Of a stretch of DNA of 64,000 bases, positions 28,608 to 54,526 are shown piece by piece. The notes beneath the pieces were generated by a model. It was not told the DNA's origin, made no database searches, and worked only from the letters and a program-made list of their open reading frames with translations. Where the stretch lies: positions 1 to 64,000 of the forward strand of contig JAQBGU010000183.1 of the NCBI GenBank assembly GCA_032128375.1, given 5' to 3'. Source of the stretch: Deltaproteobacteria bacterium (GTDB lineage: Bacteria > Myxococcota_A > UBA9160 > SMWR01). The first letter of the stretch is position 1; each line of letters opens with the position of its first letter. Position numbers and translations under genes: made by a program.

Positions 28608-28924
28608 CCGTTCCGGCTCCCTGGCAATGAGCTGGCGATCGTGCAATTTCGGGTCGACCGTTGTCTTTCCACGCGGGATACTCTCCACATCGATCGGATG
28701 AGCCCGTCCGACAAATGTCGGGACTCCCCTAGAGACGAGTTCGGTGGATCTCTAGGAGGTCTCATCGGAATACGACGGGGAGGCCTGAATCACCTCGCAC
28801 ACAAGATCCGCGGCTCGGATGGAAAATGCATTCAATTTCGGGGGATCCTGCGACGATACTACTTGCTGAGGAGCACCCCGCCCGAATGGCTCAGGCTGGC
28901 TCCGAAAGCATATCCGGGGGAATC

Positions 28925-30628
28925 ATGTCCAAGACTCTGCTGTTGGCAGACGACAGTGTCACGATCCAAAAAGTCGTGGGAATCAGTTTTGCCAGTGAAG
29001 ACGTGGCGGTCATCGCGGTCGACAATGGCGATGATGCGATCGCCAGGGCGCGTGAAGAGCGTCCCGATGCGATCCTTGCGGATGTCGTGATGCCGGGCAA
29101 AAACGGTTACGAAGTCTGTGAGGCGATCAAAGCCGACCCGGCTCTCGCGCACATTCCGGTAGTGCTGCTGACTGGGACATTCGAGGCGTTCGATGCCGAC
29201 CGCGCCGAGAGCGCTGGGGCAGCGGGTCACATCGCCAAACCCTTCGAATCGCAGACGTTGGTCGATATGGTCATGAAGTTGTTCTCGTCGACACCCGCTC
29301 CCGCAGTCGCCGCGGGCACGAACCCGCGGGCTGCTCGATCCCGGATCGCGATGGATATCCCGCCAGTCGCGCAGGCATCGACCCCCGACGCTCCCAGTGG
29401 GCCAGAGGCGGACGCCTTCGATTTCTTCGACGACGACCTCGAAGCGGCCGATGTCGTGGCTGAGCCGGAGCGGCTCGACGGCCACCCATCGCATGGGTTC
29501 GGCTCAGAATCCGCGTTTACTTTCAGCGAAGCAGACCTCGCACCGACAGCGGAAACGCCCTTGGCTGCTACGCAGCCGGCCCTCGCGGCCGCCGATTCCA
29601 TGCGAGTTGCAGGATCTACGGCCGAGATGCCGATATCCGCAATGGCTGACGAGATCGAACCGTTCGCGGTGGTCGGCGGGCATGAGTTCGACGATGACCT
29701 CGGCCAGGATCTGTCACTCGATTCCCAGCTGGATATCGACGCCGACCTGGGCCGACCGATGTCGGTTGCCGGTGAGTTTGATGCATCGATCACTTTCGAC
29801 GACGCACCGCAACCAGGTGACTCTCTGGCGCCGCTCGATAACGCGGGCAACTCCACCGATGACCCCTTCGACTTCGCATTCGAGTCGGGCAACCCGGACC
29901 CGCTGGCGGCAAGCGACGCCGAGCTGACGCGCGTAGACGGGATCGACCTGATGCAAGATTCGACGCTATATCCCGGAGCCGGGCCGAATTTCGACGTAGC
30001 GTCGTCCGACTTCGACCCCGCTGGGTTGGGCGGGTCCGAGATGACGGTGCAATTGGGTCTCGAGCCATCCGGGCACAACATCGATACCGGGTCGGAGCCC
30101 GAGCCGGCCGGTGACGGGGTCGTCGTCTCGCCAGATCACACATTTGGCGACTACTACAGCGCCACAGAACTCGCTACGACTGAGCCGGTCGACCTGGTTT
30201 CGAGCGAAGTCGTCGCATCGTTCGAGGGTCCCCAAACGGCACACGAACCGACGTCCGAGCCCGTATTCGAGCCGGCGGCCGACGCTGCATCCGATTTCGA
30301 AGCCCACCCGCTCCCTGACGCCCTACCCAGCTCGTCATTCGGCGCCCTCACGGCTGCTGAGACGTCTGTGTTCGATGCGTCTGATTCGAAAACAGCGGCA
30401 CGCGCGCAGGCGGTCTTGGAGCAGATCGAGCCGGAATTGCGGCTGCAGCTCCACGATACGCTCGAGAAAATCGCCTGGGAGGCGTTTGCCGACCTCACGG
30501 ACTCAATCGTTCGCCTATCCGTTGCCAAGGTCGAGAAAATCGCTTGGGAAGTCGTCCCTCAGCTGATCGAGACACTGGTCCGGGAAGAGATCCGCAAAAT
30601 GAAGGGCGAACCTCCCAGCGACGACTAG
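28925..30628 (+). CDS. romR: RomR-like polarity response regulator
   Basis: Receiver LLADDSVTIQKV...GTFEAFD...KPFESQ, long acidic linker, C-terminal EKIAWEVVPQL helix as in myxobacterial RomR. Confidence 0.85.
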   Translation: MSKTLLLADDSVTIQKVVGISFASEDVAVIAVDNGDDAIARAREERPDAILADVVMPGKNGYEVCEAIKADPALAHIPVVLLTGTFEAFDADRAESAGAAGHIAKPFESQTLVDMVMKLFSSTPAPAVAAGTNPRAARSRIAMDIPPVAQASTPDAPSGPEADAFDFFDDDLEAADVVAEPERLDGHPSHGFGSESAFTFSEADLAPTAETPLAATQPALAAADSMRVAGSTAEMPISAMADEIEPFAVVGGHEFDDDLGQDLSLDSQLDIDADLGRPMSVAGEFDASITFDDAPQPGDSLAPLDNAGNSTDDPFDFAFESGNPDPLAASDAELTRVDGIDLMQDSTLYPGAGPNFDVASSDFDPAGLGGSEMTVQLGLEPSGHNIDTGSEPEPAGDGVVVSPDHTFGDYYSATELATTEPVDLVSSEVVASFEGPQTAHEPTSEPVFEPAADAASDFEAHPLPDALPSSSFGALTAAETSVFDASDSKTAARAQAVLEQIEPELRLQLHDTLEKIAWEAFADLTDSIVRLSVAKVEKIAWEVVPQLIETLVREEIRKMKGEPPSDD

Positions 30629-32794: not shown

Positions 32795-33630
32795 CGGTTC
32801 TGTTGGTGATCGACATCGGGAACACCAACGTGGCGTTGGGAATTTTCGACTATGCCAGCGGCGGACCTATTTCTGGCAGCCCTGCGGCAGAACTCTCCAA
32901 TCACTGGCGCATGAGTACTCATCGCGAGCAAACCTCTGATGAAGTCGGTCTGACCGTTCGCACGCTGCTCGAGCAGACGGGCCGCGCCTGCTCCGACGTC
33001 ACTGACTTGATCATTTCGAGCGTCGTACCTCCTCTGCTCCCAATCTGGGAGCGGGTCTCGACAAAATTGTTTGGCCGCAGCCCGCTCGTCGTCGGGCCGG
33101 GGATTCGAACCGGAATGCCGGTTCTGTACGAGAACCCGCACGAACTCGGCGCAGACCGAATCGTCAATGCGCTAGCGGCGTTCGAACTATTCGGCGGCCC
33201 TGTGATCGCAGTGGACTTCGGGACCGCAACGACCTTCGATTGTGTATCGAAAGGCGGTGAGTATCTCGGAGGCGTAATTTTCCCCGGCATCCACACCTCG
33301 ATGGAAGCGCTTTTCGAGCGTGCCTCCATGCTTCACCGGGTCGAGATCGCACGCCCGCGCAGCGTCATTGGCCGTACCACTACGGGCGCGTTGCAATCCG
33401 GCTTGCTGTACGGCTTCGCCGGCATGGTCGACTCGATGGTCGCACGGATCCGCTCCGAACTCGGGTCGGATGCGCGTGTGGTCGCCACAGGTGGACTCGC
33501 GGGACGCGTCGCATCCGAGTGCGCCTCCATCGAGCAGGTGGAACCCTTCCTGACTTTGGAAGGGCTCCGAATGATCTTCGAGAAGAACCGACCCAATGCC
33601 GAATCATCACGAAAGGAGCCCTCCCCATGA
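32791..33630 (+). CDS. coaX: Type III pantothenate kinase
   Basis: DIGNTN, SSVVP, LGADR, DFGTATT, ATGG. Confidence 0.95.
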   Translation: MTVLLVIDIGNTNVALGIFDYASGGPISGSPAAELSNHWRMSTHREQTSDEVGLTVRTLLEQTGRACSDVTDLIISSVVPPLLPIWERVSTKLFGRSPLVVGPGIRTGMPVLYENPHELGADRIVNALAAFELFGGPVIAVDFGTATTFDCVSKGGEYLGGVIFPGIHTSMEALFERASMLHRVEIARPRSVIGRTTTGALQSGLLYGFAGMVDSMVARIRSELGSDARVVATGGLAGRVASECASIEQVEPFLTLEGLRMIFEKNRPNAESSRKEPSP

Positions 33631-35678
33631 ACGATGTGAAGGTCAACGACACTCACAGCTTTGCTCTGATTGGTCACAGTGGCGATGGCAAGACTTCGCT
33701 TGGCGAAGCGATCCTCCACCTCACCGGCGCAACCACATCGCTGGGTAGCGTCGTAGATGGGACTGCACATCTGACCTCGCTCCCCGAGGAAAAGGAACGC
33801 CAGTCGACGCTTACGACGGCGATCTTCGGGTTCGATTGGTCGAACAAGCACATCACGCTAATCGACACGCCTGGAGACTCGAACTTTCAGGCCAACGGCC
33901 GGATCGCGCTCGGCGCTGTCGACGGTGCGGTCTTGGTTGTGTCCGCGAGTTCTGGGGTCAAGGTCGGAACTGACCGGATGTGGCAACACTGCGAATCCAT
34001 TGCTGTCCCTGCGCTGTGTTACGTGAGCGGGATGGACAAAGAACACGCGAACTTCGACAGTGCAGTGGCCTCACTCAACAATATGGGCGCCAAGCCGGCA
34101 ATCGTGACGCTGCCGATCGGAACCGGAAGGGATTTCCAGGGCATCGTCAATCTGCTGTCGATGAAGTCGCAGACCGAAGACGGGGAAGCCGAGATTCCCG
34201 AGGCTCTGGCCGAAGCAGCGGAAGACGCACGCGCGCAGTTGGTCGAATCGGTCGCCGAATGCGACGACGACCTGCTCGAAAAGTACCTCGAGGAAGGGGA
34301 ACTCACCGCGGATGAGGTGGCACGCGGATTGGTGGCTGCCACCCGGTCGCGCAAGATACTGCCGGTATTCTGCGGGGCGGCTACTTCCCGGGCTTCGGTC
34401 GCTGCGATTCTGGACGGGGTGCTGGGGTTGCTGCCGTCGGCCGCCGATCGGCAAGCATGGGCGAGCGTCGACGACGGCGACCCGGTGCCCGCCGACCCCG
34501 ATGCGCCCTTTTCAGCGGTAGTGCTGAAAACGGTCATCGACCGCTACGCGGGCACCTTATCGGTGTTTCGAGTGATCTCGGGTACAGCTCACGCCGACAC
34601 GCCAGTTCTGAACATGACCCGAGAATCGAAGGAGCGGTTCGGAAAGCTGCACATTCTGCGCGGTCCCGAGCACATCGAGATCGAGAGCGCCGGGCCTGGA
34701 GACATTGCTGCGGTCGCCAAACTGAAATCCACCCGTACCGGAGACGTGCTGTGTGCTGAGAAGGGCGGCCCGCAGATCGCTCCGATCCCGATTCCCCAGG
34801 GTGTCATTTCCTACGCCATCTCCGCGAAGGTGAAGGGGGATGAGGATAAAGTTTACACCTCGCTCGGCCGACTTGTGGAGGAGGACCCGACCCTGCAACT
34901 GGGTCGAGAAGCGTCCACCGGCGAGTTTTTGCTCACCGGCATGGGGGAGCTTCACGTTCGAATTACCGTGCAGAAGCTCCAACGCTTGTTCGGAGTCGAA
35001 GTCGAACTCAAGACACCAAAAGTCCCCTACCGCGAAACCATCAGACGCAAGGTCGAAAATGTCGAAGGCAAGCTCAAGAAGCAGACAGGCGGCAAGGGAA
35101 TGTTCGGCGTGTGTTATTTGACGGTCGAACCCCGGCAGACCGGAGAGGGAATTGAGTTCGTTGACGAAATCAAGGGTGGCTCCATTCCACGGGGCCTGAT
35201 TCCGGCGGTCGAAAAAGGCGTGTTCGAAGCCTGCAATATCGGGCCGCTTGCCGGATACCCCATTGTCGACATGAGGATCCGCTGCACCGACGGAAAGTTT
35301 CACGCTGTCGATTCGAACGAGATGGCCTTCAAACTCGCGGCGCACGCCGGAATCAAGGCCGCCATGCTGCAGGCCAAGCCGACTCTGCTCGAACCGGTCA
35401 TGGACGTCGAAGTCTCGATTCCGGGACAATTCGTCGGCGACATCATGGGCGATCTGTCGAGCCGCCGCGGGCGCGTCCAGTCGAGCGACGCAAAGGGTTC
35501 AACCCAGATCATCAAGGCTCAGGTACCGATGTCGGAGATGCTCGAGTATGCAAGCCAGCTCACCAGTATCACCGGAGGTCAGGGCGAGTTCCACATGGAA
35601 TTTTCCCACTACGCGGACGCTCCGAGCCACGTGAAGGACAAGGTCATCGCTGAGGCATCCCACGCCGATCAGACGTAA
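33627..35678 (+). CDS. fusA2: Elongation factor G-like protein (EF-G2 type)
   Basis: EF-G domains I-V (GMGELH, KKQTGG.G, DGKFHAVDS); divergent G motifs. Confidence 0.9.
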   Translation: MNDVKVNDTHSFALIGHSGDGKTSLGEAILHLTGATTSLGSVVDGTAHLTSLPEEKERQSTLTTAIFGFDWSNKHITLIDTPGDSNFQANGRIALGAVDGAVLVVSASSGVKVGTDRMWQHCESIAVPALCYVSGMDKEHANFDSAVASLNNMGAKPAIVTLPIGTGRDFQGIVNLLSMKSQTEDGEAEIPEALAEAAEDARAQLVESVAECDDDLLEKYLEEGELTADEVARGLVAATRSRKILPVFCGAATSRASVAAILDGVLGLLPSAADRQAWASVDDGDPVPADPDAPFSAVVLKTVIDRYAGTLSVFRVISGTAHADTPVLNMTRESKERFGKLHILRGPEHIEIESAGPGDIAAVAKLKSTRTGDVLCAEKGGPQIAPIPIPQGVISYAISAKVKGDEDKVYTSLGRLVEEDPTLQLGREASTGEFLLTGMGELHVRITVQKLQRLFGVEVELKTPKVPYRETIRRKVENVEGKLKKQTGGKGMFGVCYLTVEPRQTGEGIEFVDEIKGGSIPRGLIPAVEKGVFEACNIGPLAGYPIVDMRIRCTDGKFHAVDSNEMAFKLAAHAGIKAAMLQAKPTLLEPVMDVEVSIPGQFVGDIMGDLSSRRGRVQSSDAKGSTQIIKAQVPMSEMLEYASQLTSITGGQGEFHMEFSHYADAPSHVKDKVIAEASHADQT

Positions 35679-35752: not shown

Positions 35753-36937
35753 TTGGACAACGAACGAGATTCGGCAAAAGCTTCAAAGGCTTCTGAAGGG
35801 GCATCCGAACAGGGCTCTCTACAAGGCTCTTTACAGGCCTCTTTACAGGCCTCTTTACAAGCCTCTTTACAGGGTAAGGAACCGCAGAAGATCCGCCTCA
35901 ACCTGTCTGCGCAGGCGGCACGCTATGCGCGTCGCGACGCGCCGCGCGAAACCCGGCTGATGGCGGCACGGGGCGCCCTGCCCTTGCCGGCCACTGAACT
36001 GGCGGCCGTACTGTTCGCGCTCATGCACGACGCGGATGCGGAGGTCAAGTCCACCGCGCGCGACAGCCTCGAGAATTTACCGGAGGGTGTGACCCACTCC
36101 GTGCTGATCGGCGATACCCATTCAGCCGTGCTGGCATTTTTCTGCCACCGATTCGAGGGCAACGAAGACGCGCTCGAGAAGATCGCACTGAATGCCGCGA
36201 CATCCGATGCAACGATCGCCCTACTGGCCGCTTCACCGCATAAGAAGATCATCGACATCGTTTCGGGCAATCAGGAGCGGATGCTTCGCCATCACGACAT
36301 CGTCGAGGCGCTCGGATCCAATCCACTGACCGGGCGCTCCGAACTCGAGCGAATTCTGTCGTTCATCGATGCTCCGACCGACCTCGATGATCATCCCGAC
36401 CCATCGACGCCGATCAGTGACGACGAAGCGGAAGCCGCGCTGCGCGCCGTGTTGGGTGATTCAATGGGCCACTACGCCGGTAAATTCGTCACCGAATCCG
36501 ACATGAACGACGAGCCTGATTCCGGCGGCGGGATCTACCAACTCGTTCAGAAAATGTCGGTCTTTCAGAGGATCAAACTCGCGCGGCTTGGCAACAAGGA
36601 GGCGCGGAGCCTGTTGGTGCGAGATCGCAACAAACTGGTCTCGCTGGCGGTCGTCATGAGTCCGAAGATCACGGAATCCGAGATCGTCTCGATCGCGCAG
36701 TCGCGCAACGTAACCGACGAAGTACTGCGTGTGATCGCTCGCGGCCGGGACTGGACCAAGAATTATCAAGTCAAGCTCGCGCTCTCGACCAACCCCAAGT
36801 GCCCGCTGCCGGTCGCGATGCAATTCGTGAATTACCTGCAGGACAAGGATCTCCGCATGCTCGTGCGCAGCCGAGACGTATCACAGGGAATCTCGACGCA
36901 CGCCCGCCGGATCCTGATGAAAAAAGGGAAGCTCTGA
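35753..36937 (+). CDS. Conserved helical-repeat hypothetical protein
   Basis: Repeated LxxNP motifs, KLARLGNKEARSLL; TGATG overlap with the next gene. Confidence 0.8.
   Translation: MDNERDSAKASKASEGASEQGSLQGSLQASLQASLQASLQGKEPQKIRLNLSAQAARYARRDAPRETRLMAARGALPLPATELAAVLFALMHDADAEVKSTARDSLENLPEGVTHSVLIGDTHSAVLAFFCHRFEGNEDALEKIALNAATSDATIALLAASPHKKIIDIVSGNQERMLRHHDIVEALGSNPLTGRSELERILSFIDAPTDLDDHPDPSTPISDDEAEAALRAVLGDSMGHYAGKFVTESDMNDEPDSGGGIYQLVQKMSVFQRIKLARLGNKEARSLLVRDRNKLVSLAVVMSPKITESEIVSIAQSRNVTDEVLRVIARGRDWTKNYQVKLALSTNPKCPLPVAMQFVNYLQDKDLRMLVRSRDVSQGISTHARRILMKKGKL
35810..35873. repeat. In-frame 12-bp tandem repeat x5 (SLQA/SLQG)
   Basis: CTCTTTACAGGC-like units. Confidence 0.85.
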
Positions 36938-38040
36938 TGGCGAAGCACATCCACGATGATGCGCTCGTCAACGCGCGGATCCTGTACTGGGGCGCTGAGC
37001 ATTCAGGCAAGTCTGAGAACCTCCGCACCATCTACCGCAGACTGCGACCCGATCATCGCGGGCCGCTCAAGGCTGTCCCAACGCGAATCGACCCATCGGT
37101 CGAATACGAGGTGCTGCCGATCGAGCTGGGCGACGTGGGAGGATTTCGAACGGCAATCGAGATGATCGCGGTACCCGGCGCTGCGGATCAAGCACCGACC
37201 CGCAAACAGCTGTTAGATGAAGTCGACGGGATCGTGCTCGTGATCGACTCGCAGGCCACGCGGATCGCCGACAACGAGGCGAGCCTTCAAGAGTTGCGCT
37301 CCGCGCTTGCCGACTACGGACGGCGCCTCGAAGACATTCCGCTGGTCATCCAATACAACAAGCGGGATTTGTCGGATCCGTACACACTCGACGAACTGCA
37401 CCGCAGGCTCGACGTGCGCGGCGCGGCCGTATTCGAAGCGGTCGCCACCGAACCAACGGGGGTCCTGAAGACCCTGTCGACGCTATCCAAGCGCGTCGTC
37501 CGGACCCTGCGCGATCGGAAATTCGATACTGCTGGTCAATCGGGCAACCTCGACTTTGGCCCCCCGTCCGTAGCCGACGCCCGCAGCGACTCCGACTCGC
37601 TCGCAGAAGTCTCGGGTCGCATGGAGAAGGCCATCCTGGCCGAGGAGTCTCACCCGGAATCGGACGCGATCGCGGACCTCACAGCACGAACCGAGAGTCT
37701 GCTCGATGATTCCTGGGACCTGGTTGCGCCCGACTCCGAGGCCGATGCAGGCCTCGACGGACTCGATGCGCGCTATGCGCTCGAGCCCCTCGAAGCATTC
37801 GGGCCATTCGAGCCACTCGGGCCAGCGTCATCGAATACGCCCCAGTTGGGCCCCGAACTGTCGATCACGTCTGTCGGCGAAGCAACCCGCTGCGGTCAGC
37901 GGGCCGTGCGAGTCCCGCTCGTCGTCGCAGACAAGGAGGGTCGTTCGACCACCTTGGTACTGACGATCTCGCTCGACACCCTGTCCTCCTGCTCGCCCGA
38001 CTCGTCGCATGACGGCGCGCCAGAAGAGGCACGAGATTGA
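36937..38040 (+). CDS. MglA-family small GTPase paralogue with C-terminal extension
   Basis: Gapless similarity to MglA: ILYWG....GKS.NL, VPG, VDGIVLVIDSQ, QYNKRDL. Confidence 0.85.
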   Translation: MAKHIHDDALVNARILYWGAEHSGKSENLRTIYRRLRPDHRGPLKAVPTRIDPSVEYEVLPIELGDVGGFRTAIEMIAVPGAADQAPTRKQLLDEVDGIVLVIDSQATRIADNEASLQELRSALADYGRRLEDIPLVIQYNKRDLSDPYTLDELHRRLDVRGAAVFEAVATEPTGVLKTLSTLSKRVVRTLRDRKFDTAGQSGNLDFGPPSVADARSDSDSLAEVSGRMEKAILAEESHPESDAIADLTARTESLLDDSWDLVAPDSEADAGLDGLDARYALEPLEAFGPFEPLGPASSNTPQLGPELSITSVGEATRCGQRAVRVPLVVADKEGRSTTLVLTISLDTLSSCSPDSSHDGAPEEARD

Positions 38041-40328
38041 TGCGCAAGCGAATAGCGATCTATTGCGCAAACGATGAAGTACTGCAGCTGATCCCCTCAC
38101 TGCTTGCGAACCCCGACTTGGAGATCACGGCGATCTTCGACCGCGCAGCGTCGAAGATCCGGCAACGACTTCCTGATTTCGGCCGCGAACTGGGGCCGCT
38201 GCTCGGCGCGAAACTCACGGACCGGGTCGAAGACCTCATCGACGACGCGGCGCTTCACACGATCATCGATGCGAGTGTTGAACTCGACTTCGCGAGGCAA
38301 CATTCCGACATCGTTGACCGCGGCGTACAGGTCATCTCACCTCTGACGGCTCGCTTGCTGTGGTGTTTTGTGCCGACCTCAGCACATCGCAAGACCGAAC
38401 TTCTCGGGGTGCTCCACGAACTCGTAGAATCGTACAACCTCACCATCGATGCGGATGCCCTGTTCTCGCGCATGCTGGAGATAGCCGTCAGTGTGACGGG
38501 AGCCGAAGCCGGTTCATTGATGCTGCTGGACACCGAAAACCGAGAGCTCCGGGTGCGCGTTGCCACCGGAATCGAACCGGAATTGTGGACGAAAATTCGC
38601 GTTCCGCTCGGGGAAGGCATCGCCGGCCGTGTGGCTGCCGACGCTCGCCCTCTGCGGTTGCGCGGAAAGGCCGATGGGCGGGCGTTTCACATCGTGCGCG
38701 AACGTCTCGACGTCGAGTCGGCGCTCTGTGTGCCCATGATCTTCGAAGGGCGCGTGCTGGGTGTGCTGAATCTCCATCACTCGACGCGTCCCGACACCTT
38801 TACCGACGATGATCTCGAATTCGCTGAGCAGCTCGCCCGACTGGACGCGCAGATCATCGCGCAATCTCAGGCACACGAGGTGCTGCGCGGCCAGGCGGAA
38901 CGCTACGAGGCAGTCCGCCATGTGCGAGGCGAACTCGCGGGAAAGGCTACATTGCCAGACCGGCTGCGCGGGCTGTGTCGATTCATCGCCCGGCACGCGG
39001 GCAACGGCATCGCGACGATCTACTTGTGCGACCCGGGCGACGACGGGCTCAGACTCGGAGCCACTTCGCTAGAGGGCGGTGGCTTCGGCGGCGAGTATCG
39101 AATCGCGGTCGGCCAGGGTATCGACGGCACGGTAGCGCGCACCCGCGATGCCATGATTCTCAAGACTCCCGACGGAGCGCTCGCCTACGCCGCGCTTCCG
39201 CTCGTGGCGGGCGAGACGTTTGCGGGCGTGCTCAGTGTACAGGGCGGCGAGCGTGCACCGCGTGGCCGTGCGATGGAAGAGACGCTACTCGAAATCGCGG
39301 CCGCAGCAGCCGAGGAGATCGTCCACGCGAATCAGACTGCGGCCATGACTTCACGCGCCACGCAGCTGAGTGCCGTCAACGAGACCGGAATCAAGATGAT
39401 CTCGACCGAAGACCTCGCAGAGGTGCTGCGTCTCGGCACATCCTCCGCGGCCATGGTCCTGGAGGCCGATCACACGATCTTGCGCCTGCACGACGAACAG
39501 ACCGGACGCTTCGTGATTCGCTCCTACTTTGGCTCTGCAGACGGCCCGCTCCAAGAGCGCTTGTTTCGACTCGACAAGCAGGTCTCCGTAACCGCGATCA
39601 AGCGGCGCGGCCCCCACTTGATTCGCGACATCGCACTGCACGCCGAAACGCGAGAGTTCGACACTGAGCTGCGCAGCGCGATTGCGGCGCCTCTGATGCG
39701 AGAGGCTCATGTGATGGGGACACTGGCGATCTACGACAAGGTTGAAAGCGACCAGTTCCATGTGGGGCGCTTCTCAGACGATGACCTGAGACTCTTTGGA
39801 AAGTTCGTGTCTTACCTCGAACGCGCCCTCGCCAATGCGATGTTCCACGCCCAGGCGCGACGGTTCCGAAACTTTGATACCGAAACCGGCCTGCCAAACT
39901 CGGTCTATCTCGAAAAACGGATCGTCGAAGAAGTCGCGCGCGCGGCTGGGGCCGAAAGCGCACTCGCAATCGCCGTCTGCAAGCTCGAGAACCTCGACGA
40001 AATCGAGCGCTCCGCTGGTGCTACGCGCGTGCGCCAGGTCGTCGCTCGCAGCGTCGACGCGTTGAGGAGCCACCTGCGCGACTTCGACGTCCTCGGCCGC
40101 ACCAGCGACAACGAGTTCACGATCCTGCTGCCCGACCCTGGCGTATCCGCGAGCGATCGCGTGTTCGCGCTCGCTCGCGCGGTTGCGGACGACCTCTCCG
40201 GCAACGAAGCCCTCAACGCGGGGGCCCGGATTGCGTTGGGCTTCGGCTATGCGGTCTATCCGGGCGACGGAGCCGATTGCGGTGCGCTGCTCGAAAAAGC
40301 CTGCGAACCTCGCATCCGAATGGTGTAG
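38040..40328 (+). CDS. Multi-GAF protein with degenerate GGDEF domain
   Basis: GAF motifs (GEGIAGRVA, GQGIDGTVA), DTETGLPN, RDFD-x5-SDNEF. Confidence 0.85.
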   Translation: MRKRIAIYCANDEVLQLIPSLLANPDLEITAIFDRAASKIRQRLPDFGRELGPLLGAKLTDRVEDLIDDAALHTIIDASVELDFARQHSDIVDRGVQVISPLTARLLWCFVPTSAHRKTELLGVLHELVESYNLTIDADALFSRMLEIAVSVTGAEAGSLMLLDTENRELRVRVATGIEPELWTKIRVPLGEGIAGRVAADARPLRLRGKADGRAFHIVRERLDVESALCVPMIFEGRVLGVLNLHHSTRPDTFTDDDLEFAEQLARLDAQIIAQSQAHEVLRGQAERYEAVRHVRGELAGKATLPDRLRGLCRFIARHAGNGIATIYLCDPGDDGLRLGATSLEGGGFGGEYRIAVGQGIDGTVARTRDAMILKTPDGALAYAALPLVAGETFAGVLSVQGGERAPRGRAMEETLLEIAAAAAEEIVHANQTAAMTSRATQLSAVNETGIKMISTEDLAEVLRLGTSSAAMVLEADHTILRLHDEQTGRFVIRSYFGSADGPLQERLFRLDKQVSVTAIKRRGPHLIRDIALHAETREFDTELRSAIAAPLMREAHVMGTLAIYDKVESDQFHVGRFSDDDLRLFGKFVSYLERALANAMFHAQARRFRNFDTETGLPNSVYLEKRIVEEVARAAGAESALAIAVCKLENLDEIERSAGATRVRQVVARSVDALRSHLRDFDVLGRTSDNEFTILLPDPGVSASDRVFALARAVADDLSGNEALNAGARIALGFGYAVYPGDGADCGALLEKACEPRIRMV

Positions 40329-54095: not shown

Positions 54096-54434
54096 TCAGC
54101 CGACTTCGATGCCCGCGACGTCTTCGAGCAATGCGACAGCCATGGGGTCGATTTCAACGAATGCGAGACCGACATCCGTGGTAATCGGGTCGATTTCGGT
54201 CGCCCAGGTGACGCGCCCCACAGCCACGACTGTGTGATCGCCCAGGTTGAACGTCACGCGCAGCAGGTCGTCGAGGTCGATCTCACATCCGATGGCTTCG
54301 AAGCGAATCCCGCCGGGAGACAAGTCTCGGCCGACGCCGAGAAGATCGCGCTCTTCGACCGGTGCAAACGAAATGACATGATCCGTCTGGATCCGCTGAA
54401 ACTTGCGGCGCTCGTCAATTTGCGACTTTCCCAT
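54096..54434 (-). CDS. Stand-alone PilZ-domain protein
   Basis: RRKFQR (RxxxR) and DLSPGG (DxSxxG). Confidence 0.88.
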   Translation of the reverse strand: MGKSQIDERRKFQRIQTDHVISFAPVEERDLLGVGRDLSPGGIRFEAIGCEIDLDDLLRVTFNLGDHTVVAVGRVTWATEIDPITTDVGLAFVEIDPMAVALLEDVAGIEVG

Positions 54435-54526
54435 GCGCAGCCCCCAAGCCAGCAAGTGTCAACGTTTCCTTCCATCGGTTGGTGGGCCTGGGCACTTGAG
54501 CTGGGCGGGCGATGAAGATTCGCTGG

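Follow-up and report, generated by a model that had tools for sequence, protein, structure and literature searches.

The question raised by this locus is what a MglA-type small GTPase does when the residues on which its GTP hydrolysis depends have been replaced. The gene lies at positions 36937..38040 (+ strand) of the window, the stretch of 64,000 nucleotides of DNA analysed here, and codes from an ATG start for 367 residues that comprise a G domain, an acidic linker, a helical motif and a C-terminal β module. MglA is the model for a Ras-like polarity switch in bacteria, and its mechanism rests on an arginine finger and on Gln82, which is positioned by MglB. According to the published description of the MglA active site, Arg53 serves as the catalytic finger, Thr54 coordinates Mg and the Q82L variant is unable to hydrolyse GTP (PMC6876712). 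The mutational study in which G21V and Q82A were engineered as analogues of Ras-activating changes describes T78A as poorly functional (PMC3000849). An earlier note, made from the nucleotide sequence alone, had singled out the protein encoded in the window as a MglA paralogue that naturally carries changes at positions 21, 53 and 82.

The G domain (residues 1–194, 36937..37518, +) has the MglA fold. Its residues 10–192 align without gaps and in the same numbering to residues 10–192 of the M. xanthus MglA chains 6h17_A, 6hjh_A and 5ymx_A (phmmer against PDB chains, E 3.3e-35), as the earlier note had proposed for the first ~190 residues. The match to T. thermophilus MglA is of similar quality (E 6.8e-35) and the next-best PDB protein that is not MglA, Arl3, follows at E 0.004. 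The AlphaFold2 (AF2) model, whose residues 10–200 have pLDDT >90, superimposes on MglA structures with TM scores of 0.83–0.89 (normalised to the target) at 34–38% identity, and the top 12 Foldseek matches are all MglA. The G domain is thus nearer to MglA than to other Ras-superfamily proteins. The comparison does not discriminate between nucleotide states, GTPγS-bound and GDP-bound MglA structures being ranked nearly equally (rmsd 2.0–3.0 and 2.1–2.4, respectively).

The alignment to M. xanthus MglA bears out the substitutions listed in the earlier note and its view that the lost residues are equivalent to MglA positions important for hydrolysis. The P-loop GPGLCGKT reads GAEHSGKS (G19-A-E21-H-S-G-K25-S26, 36991..37014, +), with Glu instead of Gly21 at the position of Ras G12 and Ser for Thr26. 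The acidic residue 21 is unexpected for a simple loss of function, for which Ala or Ser would suffice, and may serve a separate function. In switch I (D52-P53-S54, 37090..37098, +) the DRT motif is changed to DPS, so that Pro stands in place of the arginine finger and Ser in place of Thr54. In G3/switch II (V79-P-G-A82-A-D-Q85, 37171..37191, +) VPGQ has become VPGA, with Ala for the catalytic Gln. Two further differences from MglA, T78→A immediately before this motif and Y85→Q three residues after position 82, had been overlooked, and Trp18 replaces a Tyr. Features shared with MglA are K25, the VPG core of G3, the guanine-specificity motif G4 (N141-K-R-D144, 37357..37368, +), the acidic residue 58 and R89; S26 is likewise present as first described. 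In MglA, the acidic residue 58 takes over Mg coordination.

These residue states were followed in 62 loci from species-representative genomes, in a set of 120 sequences (the window protein with the 119 relatives closest to it) and in 59 diverse representatives of its clade, with 17 control loci and a 78-row side of the tree as the canonical comparison. Pro53 is found in 62/62 loci and in 116 of the 120 closest relatives, and Gln82 is left in two of the 62 loci and in none of the 120. Position 21 is Glu or Asp in 49/62 loci and 100/120 close relatives and is never Gly among the 59 clade representatives, while Ala78 occurs in 52/62 loci. The canonical control loci have G21, R53, T78 and Q82 in 17/17 cases. 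In the tree the family makes up the 59-row side (SH-aLRT 97), on which no sequence combines R53 with Q82; R53 and Q82 are each present in 71 of the 78 rows with canonical forms on the opposite side. The replacements common to the subfamily are Gly21→Glu/Asp, Arg53→Pro, Thr78→Ala and Gln82→Gly/Ala/Ser. The nucleotide pocket is kept (P-loop Gly/Lys/Ser-Thr, NKxD, G5 Ala, acidic residue 58), with N141 and D144 present in 62/62 loci, 120/120 close relatives and 59/59 representatives and, like G19 and G24, invariant in all sets. The switch residues D52, P80 and R89 are each found in 62/62 loci. Full-length homologues (39–93% identity) fall into hundreds of clusters, and the mean column identity of the GTPase alignment is 36%. 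Of the 569 relatives from species-representative genomes, the best 80 all stem from metagenome-assembled genomes (MAGs), most of which are labelled Myxococcota or Deltaproteobacteria. Complete MAG chromosomes with the locus include CP070734.1, OZ245002.1 and OZ245015.1. The window protein is therefore not the single odd paralogue that had been supposed but a member of a large, hitherto unclassified subfamily of MglA-type small GTPases.

The group definitions of Wuichet & Sogaard-Andersen (2015) state that Gly21, the Arg53 finger next to the G2 threonine, Thr78 and Gln82 are conserved in all Group 1 members, to which M. xanthus and T. thermophilus MglA belong (PMC4316618). The window protein lacks these four residues: its Pro53 is shared by the whole set of loci, and its G3 is AVPGA instead of TVPGQ, with P80 and G81 kept. 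The Group 1 G4 motif [NT]KxD is found as NKRD. The Thr-Thr pair in G2 and the GTPGQ of G3 that characterize MglA Groups 2–5 are absent too, their places being taken by DPS and AVPGA. The published survey left out sequences >240 aa (PMC4316618), and the subfamily consequently lies outside its classification. The window protein also differs from Group 1 MglA by its length with C-terminal modules, by the Gln/His at position 85 and by its lack of a nearby mglB. Pfam scans of the 47 window ORFs gave no canonical mglA or mglB within the 64 kb, which leaves 'paralogue' a provisional label, and neither these scans nor synteny gave any Roadblock/MglB gene in the window, the intended positive control having yielded a Roadblock domain in 0/9 scanned ORFs next to canonical mglA at loci L066 and L078. 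Orphan MglA proteins are known, and the absence of a Roadblock neighbour alone would not exclude membership in Group 1. One of them, the M. xanthus paralogue SofG, resembles the window protein in having extensions beyond the G domain and in not being served by MglB; compared by its description only, it differs in its length (239 aa) and in keeping an arginine finger that is needed for GTPase activity (PMC4316618).

The region downstream of the G domain has the composition first noted, an acidic linker (24 D/E and 6 K/R over residues 195–304) followed by a short β-rich module. Within the linker, the model and a hidden Markov model (HMM) delimit a conserved helical motif, RME.AIL.E..HPE...LD..W (residues 226–262, 37612..37722, +), which the HMM detects in 22/59 clade representatives. 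The C-terminal module (residues 305–349, 37849..37983, +) is predicted with pLDDT about 95 as three β strands (309–313, 323–331 and 337–345) and is present in 46/59 representatives by HMM. It also occurs in 10–24 of 70 tails of canonical long MglA-like proteins, with ≤1/280 in controls, and is thus common to long MglA-like proteins that are catalytically intact. The C-terminal region matched no Pfam family at E≤10, no PDB sequence at E≤10 with a profile of 41 orthologues and gave no usable match in the ESM Atlas, and Foldseek matches of the whole AF2 model were limited to the G domain, with none for the β module.

The GTPase gene is the central one of three. Directly 5' of it, in 59/59 loci, is up394 (35753..36937, +), whose TGA overlaps the ATG of the GTPase gene by one base. 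Its product is modelled as an all-α, putatively HEAT/ARM-like solenoid of 24 short helices (pLDDT 86) that belongs to no curated family. Searches of Pfam, NCBIfam, PDB sequences and PDB profiles gave nothing significant for it. Weak Pfam matches of its orthologues, all below the gathering score, are to HEAT_2 (23/56) and LRV_2 (14/56); the best Foldseek matches are a designed ARM protein, PP2A-A and importin (E at least 1.7e-3, TM about 0.2) and those in the ESM Atlas are 'hypothetical' clusters only. On the 3' side, in 51/54 loci, the GTPase gene is followed by a gene coding for an N-terminal domain, two GAF domains and a degenerate GGDEF domain (38037..40328, +). This gene probably starts with the ATG at 38040, which shares one base with the TGA of the GTPase gene. 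The three genes, with TGATG overlaps at both junctions, form a translationally coupled operon. The RxxD I-site of GGDEF domains is placed five residues upstream of the A-site, and in the window protein RDFD is separated by the five residues VLGRT from a degenerate A-site, SDNEF (40077..40118, +). The orthologues show GG[DE]EF in 0/43 and RxxD in 42/43. By these sequence features the downstream protein is a candidate degenerate-GGDEF receptor that would bind c-di-GMP. Conserved synteny extends far past the three genes (nadC-birA-coaX ... sat), so part of their adjacency reflects genome relatedness and not selection for linkage. A response regulator in this syntenic region, considered as a possible RomR, has only generic receiver-domain matches in the PDB.

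The reading preferred here, with a probability of about 0.55, is that the protein acts as a GTP-binding, hydrolysis-deficient adaptor in a three-protein hub linked to c-di-GMP. Every element of the MglA cis-acting hydrolysis machinery is replaced across the family and the nucleotide pocket retained; it is a reasonable inference that the protein binds GTP but is incapable of MglA-type hydrolysis, the most likely outcome being bound GTP with very low intrinsic hydrolysis. A MglB-type GAP could presumably not act on a subfamily protein, because such a GAP works by positioning Arg53 and Gln82. In that case the subfamily protein would act as an adaptor that is always 'on' and not as a timer. The degree of conservation in its switch regions matches that in real MglA, and these regions are therefore probably still binding surfaces. 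The GTPase, the α-solenoid and the GAF-GAF-GGDEF protein may interact physically as one hub, which would be regulated by c-di-GMP (and GAF ligands) and not by a GTPase cycle, with a putative link to polarity. The eukaryotic pseudoGTPases Rnd and RhoH, from a different branch of the superfamily, follow a similar residue logic: they carry natural changes at the Ras G12/Q61 positions, keep the pocket, are constitutively GTP-bound and are regulated otherwise. The window protein shares with pseudoGTPases the replaced catalytic residues together with intact G1, G4 and G5.

Other readings of the same residues were weighed against the adaptor. Decay of a lineage-specific paralogue or pseudogene, with the substitutions as mere noise, deserves almost no credence: beyond the substitutions themselves nothing favours it, the ORF is intact, homologues are full-length, and conservation extends to the switch regions, the C-terminal modules and the operon. 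Since the same substitutions are fixed across the family, they are not lineage-specific decay, and the orthologues retaining R53/Q82 that the earlier note had named as a sign of it are reduced to the two loci with Q82 and to none with both residues in the 59-cluster clade. It is also improbable that the protein is a nucleotide-free pseudoGTPase, that is, a pure scaffold that kept the fold and lost binding of GTP and GDP. An acidic side chain beside the phosphates could indeed disfavour GTP. The P-loop Lys25 is missing from 5/62 loci and 9/59 representatives, and Thr54 is changed to Ala in 5/62 loci, so that some members of the wider clade may no longer bind nucleotide or Mg. Yet K25 is kept in the other 57 loci and in 120/120 sequences of the window protein and its closest relatives, and the invariance of the pocket glycines and of the guanine-specificity motif would be difficult to account for if no nucleotide were bound.

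A working GTPase with rewired catalysis is possible, if unlikely. It would rely on residue 85 as a putative water-positioner, perhaps on Glu/Asp21 and Arg50, or on the solenoid as a GAP in trans that would provide an Arg finger and/or an Asn/Gln. Since GTPases classically use Gln or His to position the water, hydrolysis through a displaced residue 85 is conceivable; this position, missed in the first description, is Gln or His in 59/62 loci and 51/59 representatives and Tyr in 72 of 78 canonical MglA sequences. The prevalence of Glu or Asp at position 21 is specific rather than random and points the same way. Arg50, put forward by the earlier note as an alternative finger, is a weak candidate: Arg is found there in 46/62 loci, 35/59 representatives and only 40/120 close relatives, 52 of which have Leu, and a universal replacement finger at this position was rejected. 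With regard to catalysis in trans, GTPases devoid of the catalytic Gln can hydrolyse GTP with residues supplied by a partner, as in Rap–RapGAP. The up394 protein is better conserved than the GTPase (mean column identity 64% vs 36%), its gene overlaps that of the GTPase, and it is rich in invariant Arg, Asn and Gln (R27, N106, N132, Q133, R138, R154, R159, R237, R244, R277, R285, R344 and R345), although scaffolds built of HEAT/LRV repeats typically have invariant Arg and Asn as well. A predicted complex of the GTPase, GTP, Mg and the up394 protein scored 0.00 in two runs without controls and carries no weight either way. The joint fixation of three independent changes that impair hydrolysis looks more like abandonment of catalysis than its rewiring.

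The adaptor reading has a functional analogue, for which no homology is claimed, in Bdellovibrio bacteriovorus. The report on its MglA (Bd3734) describes a natural Ser21 and no MglB, and its authors predicted a permanent GTP-bound state; this MglA binds the 40.5-kDa TPR protein Bd2492 in a 1:1 ratio and Bd2492 binds CdgA, a c-di-GMP receptor with a degenerate GGDEF domain (PMC3983030). The two systems are alike in the substitution of residue 21, in the lack of MglB and in combining a ~40-kDa α-helical repeat partner with a degenerate-GGDEF protein. In the window, the GTPase's own operon codes for a solenoid of comparable size and for a GGDEF domain that is degenerate but has an I-site, whereas the passages of the Bdellovibrio report dealing with these proteins do not present their genes as one operon (PMC3983030). 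Bdellovibrio MglA further differs in its 197 residues with the other motifs conserved, Arg53, Thr78 and Gln82 being additionally lost from the window protein, and its partner is a TPR protein instead of a HEAT/ARM-like one. The parallel leads to a tentative and rather doubtful extension, in which the adaptor would be permanently loaded and control would have shifted from a GAP/GEF cycle to the co-encoded c-di-GMP receptor and solenoid scaffold. The operon would then hard-wire a hub like MglA-TPR-CdgA, which in Bdellovibrio is built from dispersed genes. In a bolder variant the solenoid could represent a novel type of GAP that acts in trans and provides the lost Arg and Gln/Asn; if true, the cis-finger mechanism of MglA would have been converted back to a eukaryote-like trans mechanism.

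Membership in a conserved family that is encoded in a constant three-gene operon shifts the interesting question away from one odd paralogue. Equivalents of the laboratory changes that impair hydrolysis at positions 21, 53 and 82, plus T78A, are naturally fixed across a family, a sizeable part of whose diversity escaped the earlier classification of small GTPases from prokaryotes (≤240 aa). The C-terminal β module and the solenoid partner are two uncharacterised modules to study. The subfamily offers a natural test of what a MglA-type protein unable to cycle does, and its operon is a candidate for a direct connection, at the genetic level, of small-GTPase to c-di-GMP signalling.

The ORF at 36937-38040 (+) is intact, with 367 codons and an ATG start. 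The best matches of its product among all PDB chain sequences (phmmer) are the MglA proteins of M. xanthus (E 3.3e-35) and T. thermophilus (6.8e-35), followed outside MglA by Arl3 (E 0.004), and the sole Pfam match is a weak one to Arf (28 bits). Residues 10-192 align without gaps to residues 10-192 of M. xanthus MglA, and the numbering of the two proteins is therefore identical. The P-loop GPGLCGKT of MglA is GAEHSGKS in the window protein (G21E, T26S), DRT of switch I is DPS (R53P, T54S) and TVPGQVFY of G3 is AVPGAADQ (T78A, Q82A, Y85Q), while NKRD 141-144 is the same. The AlphaFold2 model, built with 60 family sequences, has a pLDDT >90 for residues 10-200; on superposition with crystal structures of MglA it reaches TM scores of 0.83-0.89 (target-normalised) at 34-38% identity. 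The phmmer alignment and the superposition thus bear out the description in the earlier note, which had read the protein by eye as a gapless MglA paralogue changed at positions 21, 53 and 82 with NKRD kept. Arg53 is the catalytic arginine finger of M. xanthus MglA; MglB shifts the finger loop so that Arg53 and the Mg-binding Thr54 enter the active site, and GTP hydrolysis is impossible for MglA Q82L (PMC6876712). MglA G21V and Q82A were designed as counterparts of the activating Ras G12 and Q61 mutations, and Ser alone is tolerated in place of Thr78, T78A complementing poorly (PMC3000849).

The substitutions at catalytic positions are a character of the whole family, beyond the window protein. 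Of 8000 candidates scored in a word-seeded search across 5.8 billion proteins, 2716 were matches, the best 120 of which are 302-393 aa long and 49-93% identical to the query over ~95% of its length; a filter-only HMMER search against 1.84 billion cluster representatives found 4920 with E<=1e-3, of which 357 reach E<=1e-30. Position 21 is Glu in 53 and Asp in 47 of the 120 closest relatives, which all carry Pro (116) or Ser (4) at 53 and Gln (116) or His (4) at 85. Gln is never found at position 82, which is mainly occupied by Gly (71), Ser (16), Ala (13), Asn (8), Pro (5) or His (2); N141 and D144 are present in all 120. Among the 62 of 63 family loci that cover the GTPase N-terminus, position 21 is acidic in 49 and Gly in one, P53, N141 and D144 are found in all, Q82 in two, Q/H85 in 59, A78 in 52 and K25 in 57. 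G21, R53, T78, Q82, Y85, K25, N141 and D144 are each found in 17/17 canonical mglA control loci. G19, G24, P80, R89, N141 and D144 are invariant in every sequence set; at the acidic position 58, 44/62 loci have Glu and another four have Asp. The earlier note had proposed R50 as an alternative finger. Arg is found there in 46/62 loci and 35/59 clade representatives, but in only 40 of the 120 closest relatives, where Leu is commoner, and R50 is thus rejected as a universal replacement finger.

A maximum-likelihood tree (quick search in IQ-TREE under LG+G4, with SH-aLRT as the only support measure) was computed for 137 sequences, those among 161 selected in which the G domain is near-complete. 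A branch with SH-aLRT 97 parts a side of 59 sequences, including the query, from one of 78. R53 (71), Q82 (71) and Y85 (72) predominate on the latter. The earlier note had raised lineage-specific decay, with orthologues retaining R53/Q82; no sequence on the query side has both residues, and none has Gly21. Note that a small group on the canonical side (P0171, P0174 and P0176, 411-516 aa, SH-aLRT 99) has Pro53 and Asp/Glu82 beside a P-loop closer to that of MglA (YYGP.G.GKT), and a similar module at the C-terminus; here the catalytic pair may have been lost a second time, independently.

The GTPase gene is the middle one of three. Both junctions overlap by one base: the final A of the TGA that closes the upstream ORF (35753-36937) is the first base of the GTPase ATG, and that of the GTPase TGA is the first base of an ATG at 38040 in the downstream ORF. 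No terminator-like site rises above shuffled expectation. The upstream gene has a homologue directly 5' of the GTPase gene in 59/59 family loci with room to see it (of 63), and the downstream gene one 3' of it in 51/54, the exceptions being loci L021, L050 and L060. The abutting or overlapping junctions persist at 39-69% protein identity. Synteny extends beyond the three genes (response regulator, nadC, birA, coaX, EF-G paralogue, the triad, ald, sat and others) and the linkage therefore partly reflects relatedness of the genomes. All 63 loci are MAG contigs, labelled in their record titles as Myxococcota or Myxococcales (34), Deltaproteobacteria (18), Spirochaetales/Spirochaetaceae (8), Proteobacteria (2) and unclassified 'bacterium' (1); the best 80 of 569 relatives include no cultured organism. 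The Spirochaetales/Spirochaetaceae-labelled loci (L004, L009, L018, L020, L027, L043, L044, L046) have the synteny of the Myxococcota loci, and one upstream-protein homologue is assigned to Spirochaetaceae by one source and to Myxococcota by another; these labels may therefore be artefacts of binning or of taxonomy.

Searches of Pfam, NCBIfam and PDB sequences gave no significant match to the upstream protein. Conservation is higher among its orthologues than in the GTPase (mean column identity 64% versus 36%), and the protein is modelled as an all-α solenoid with two repeat arrays (pLDDT 86, pTM 0.76) for which Foldseek returns generic ARM/HEAT matches only; weak Pfam matches to HEAT_2 and LRV_2 occur in 23/56 and 14/56 orthologues. 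The first ~41 codons of its ORF (35753-35875 (+), an SLQ-repeat stretch with a TTG start) are not conserved, the orthologues are mostly 355-365 aa long and homology begins at residue 42-47, so that the real start is probably 3' of 35753. In the downstream protein two GAF domains are accompanied by a GGDEF domain, whose A-site is SDNEF with RDFD five residues upstream. GG[DE]EF is found in 0/43 orthologues with this region aligned and RxxD in 42/43; as is usual for domains of this kind, we read the protein as a c-di-GMP receptor and not a cyclase.

Other genes of the neighbourhood deserve mention. The response regulator at 28826-30628 (+) has 600 aa: a receiver (39-149) is followed by a long low-complexity region rich in acidic residues and by a helical segment, conserved, at the C-terminus (~530-595), a layout reminiscent of RomR; it is syntenic, with receiver and C-terminus conserved, in most family loci, and its PDB matches are to generic receivers only. 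The EF-G paralogue (33519-35678 (+); NCBIfam 'elongation factor G' subfamily, 794 bits) lies directly 5' of the triad and is there in 35/50 loci. As listed, the ORF starts at a GTG that lies ~110 nt inside coaX, and homology begins only near residue 37; translation therefore probably starts further downstream. A stand-alone PilZ-domain gene (54096-54455 (-), E 1e-9), coding for another type of c-di-GMP receptor, lies ~14 kb from the operon. Elsewhere, tandem or near-tandem MglA-like gene pairs occur in cyanobacterial and Melainabacteria MAGs (L078, 9971-11123; L064, 8484-10597; L068, 8530-10675); no Roadblock gene was found among the ORFs scanned around mglA in loci L066 and L078.

The closest precedent is found in Bdellovibrio bacteriovorus, whose MglA has a natural Ser21 in a genome without mglB and was proposed to be permanently GTP-bound. 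It binds the TPR protein Bd2492 (40.5 kDa) at 1:1 stoichiometry, and Bd2492 and RomR bind CdgA, a c-di-GMP receptor with a degenerate GGDEF (GVNEF) (PMC3983030). The same three kinds of protein are coded side by side in the window operon; the comparison is an analogy of parts and no homology is claimed.

On balance we favour, with a probability of about 0.55, that the window protein binds a guanine nucleotide, with hydrolysis very slow or absent, lies beyond the reach of an MglB-type GAP and serves as an adaptor complexed with the solenoid and the c-di-GMP receptor. Its nucleotide pocket and switch surfaces look under selection: switches I and II are conserved to the level of canonical MglA, with different residues, and neither the protein nor any of its 119 closest relatives has lost K25 or Thr/Ser26. 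This argues, at least for the window protein, against a nucleotide-free scaffold, which we hold unlikely, and against simple decay, which is most improbable given also that no sequence on the query side of the tree has both R53 and Q82. In the wider clade the loss of K25 (9/59 representatives, 5/62 loci) indicates that some lineages may have gone further. The main rival, possible if tentative, is that catalysis was rewired, either in cis, by way of Q/H85 and E/D21, or in trans, by residues that the solenoid would supply. An acidic residue is specifically favoured at position 21, and position 85, which lies three residues past the lost Gln and is Tyr in canonical MglA, is Gln/His in 51/59 representatives as in nearly all loci; either residue could have a role in such a mechanism.

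The C-terminal extension agrees with the acidic linker and short β module announced in the earlier note. The linker (residues 195-304; 24 D/E versus 6 K/R) is weakly conserved apart from a helical motif, RME.AIL.E..HPE (226-262, pLDDT 70-83), and is disordered at 263-299; it leads to a three-strand β module (305-349, pLDDT ~95). The module HMM matches the extreme C-terminus of 46/59 clade representatives and 10/70 tails of canonical representatives (R53 and Q82 present, 260 aa or longer), rising on iteration to 24/70 versus 0-1/280 shuffled or reversed controls per round. The module therefore predates the loss of the catalytic residues. It matches no PDB sequence in a profile search and no Pfam family, and among 120 listed of its 186 matches in longer proteins PF00025 is the only precomputed Pfam domain; it thus appears confined to MglA-like GTPases. 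Other canonical long forms end, by eye, in basic amphipathic tails or hydrophobic segments. Catalytically intact long representatives (P0175-P0269, 270-810 aa) have varied C-termini past disordered acidic linkers: the same β module, basic amphipathic tails (e.g., ...KKKGLLGRLFG...) or hydrophobic TM-like segments.

Relatives are publicly annotated as 'ATP/GTP-binding protein', 'ADP-ribosylation factor-like protein', 'signal recognition particle receptor subunit beta' or 'hypothetical protein', and the family is undescribed among the papers listed in searches of open full text on MglA, pseudoGTPases, SofG and GGDEF. The small-GTPase survey PMC4316618 left out sequences >240 aa, which are 39/488 of its MglA subclade; the family is outside all five of its groups and beyond its scope by design. 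The varied C-termini of the catalytically intact long representatives suggest a family of MglA proteins with built-in localisation modules, omitted by that 2015 classification, which was restricted to 240 aa or less.
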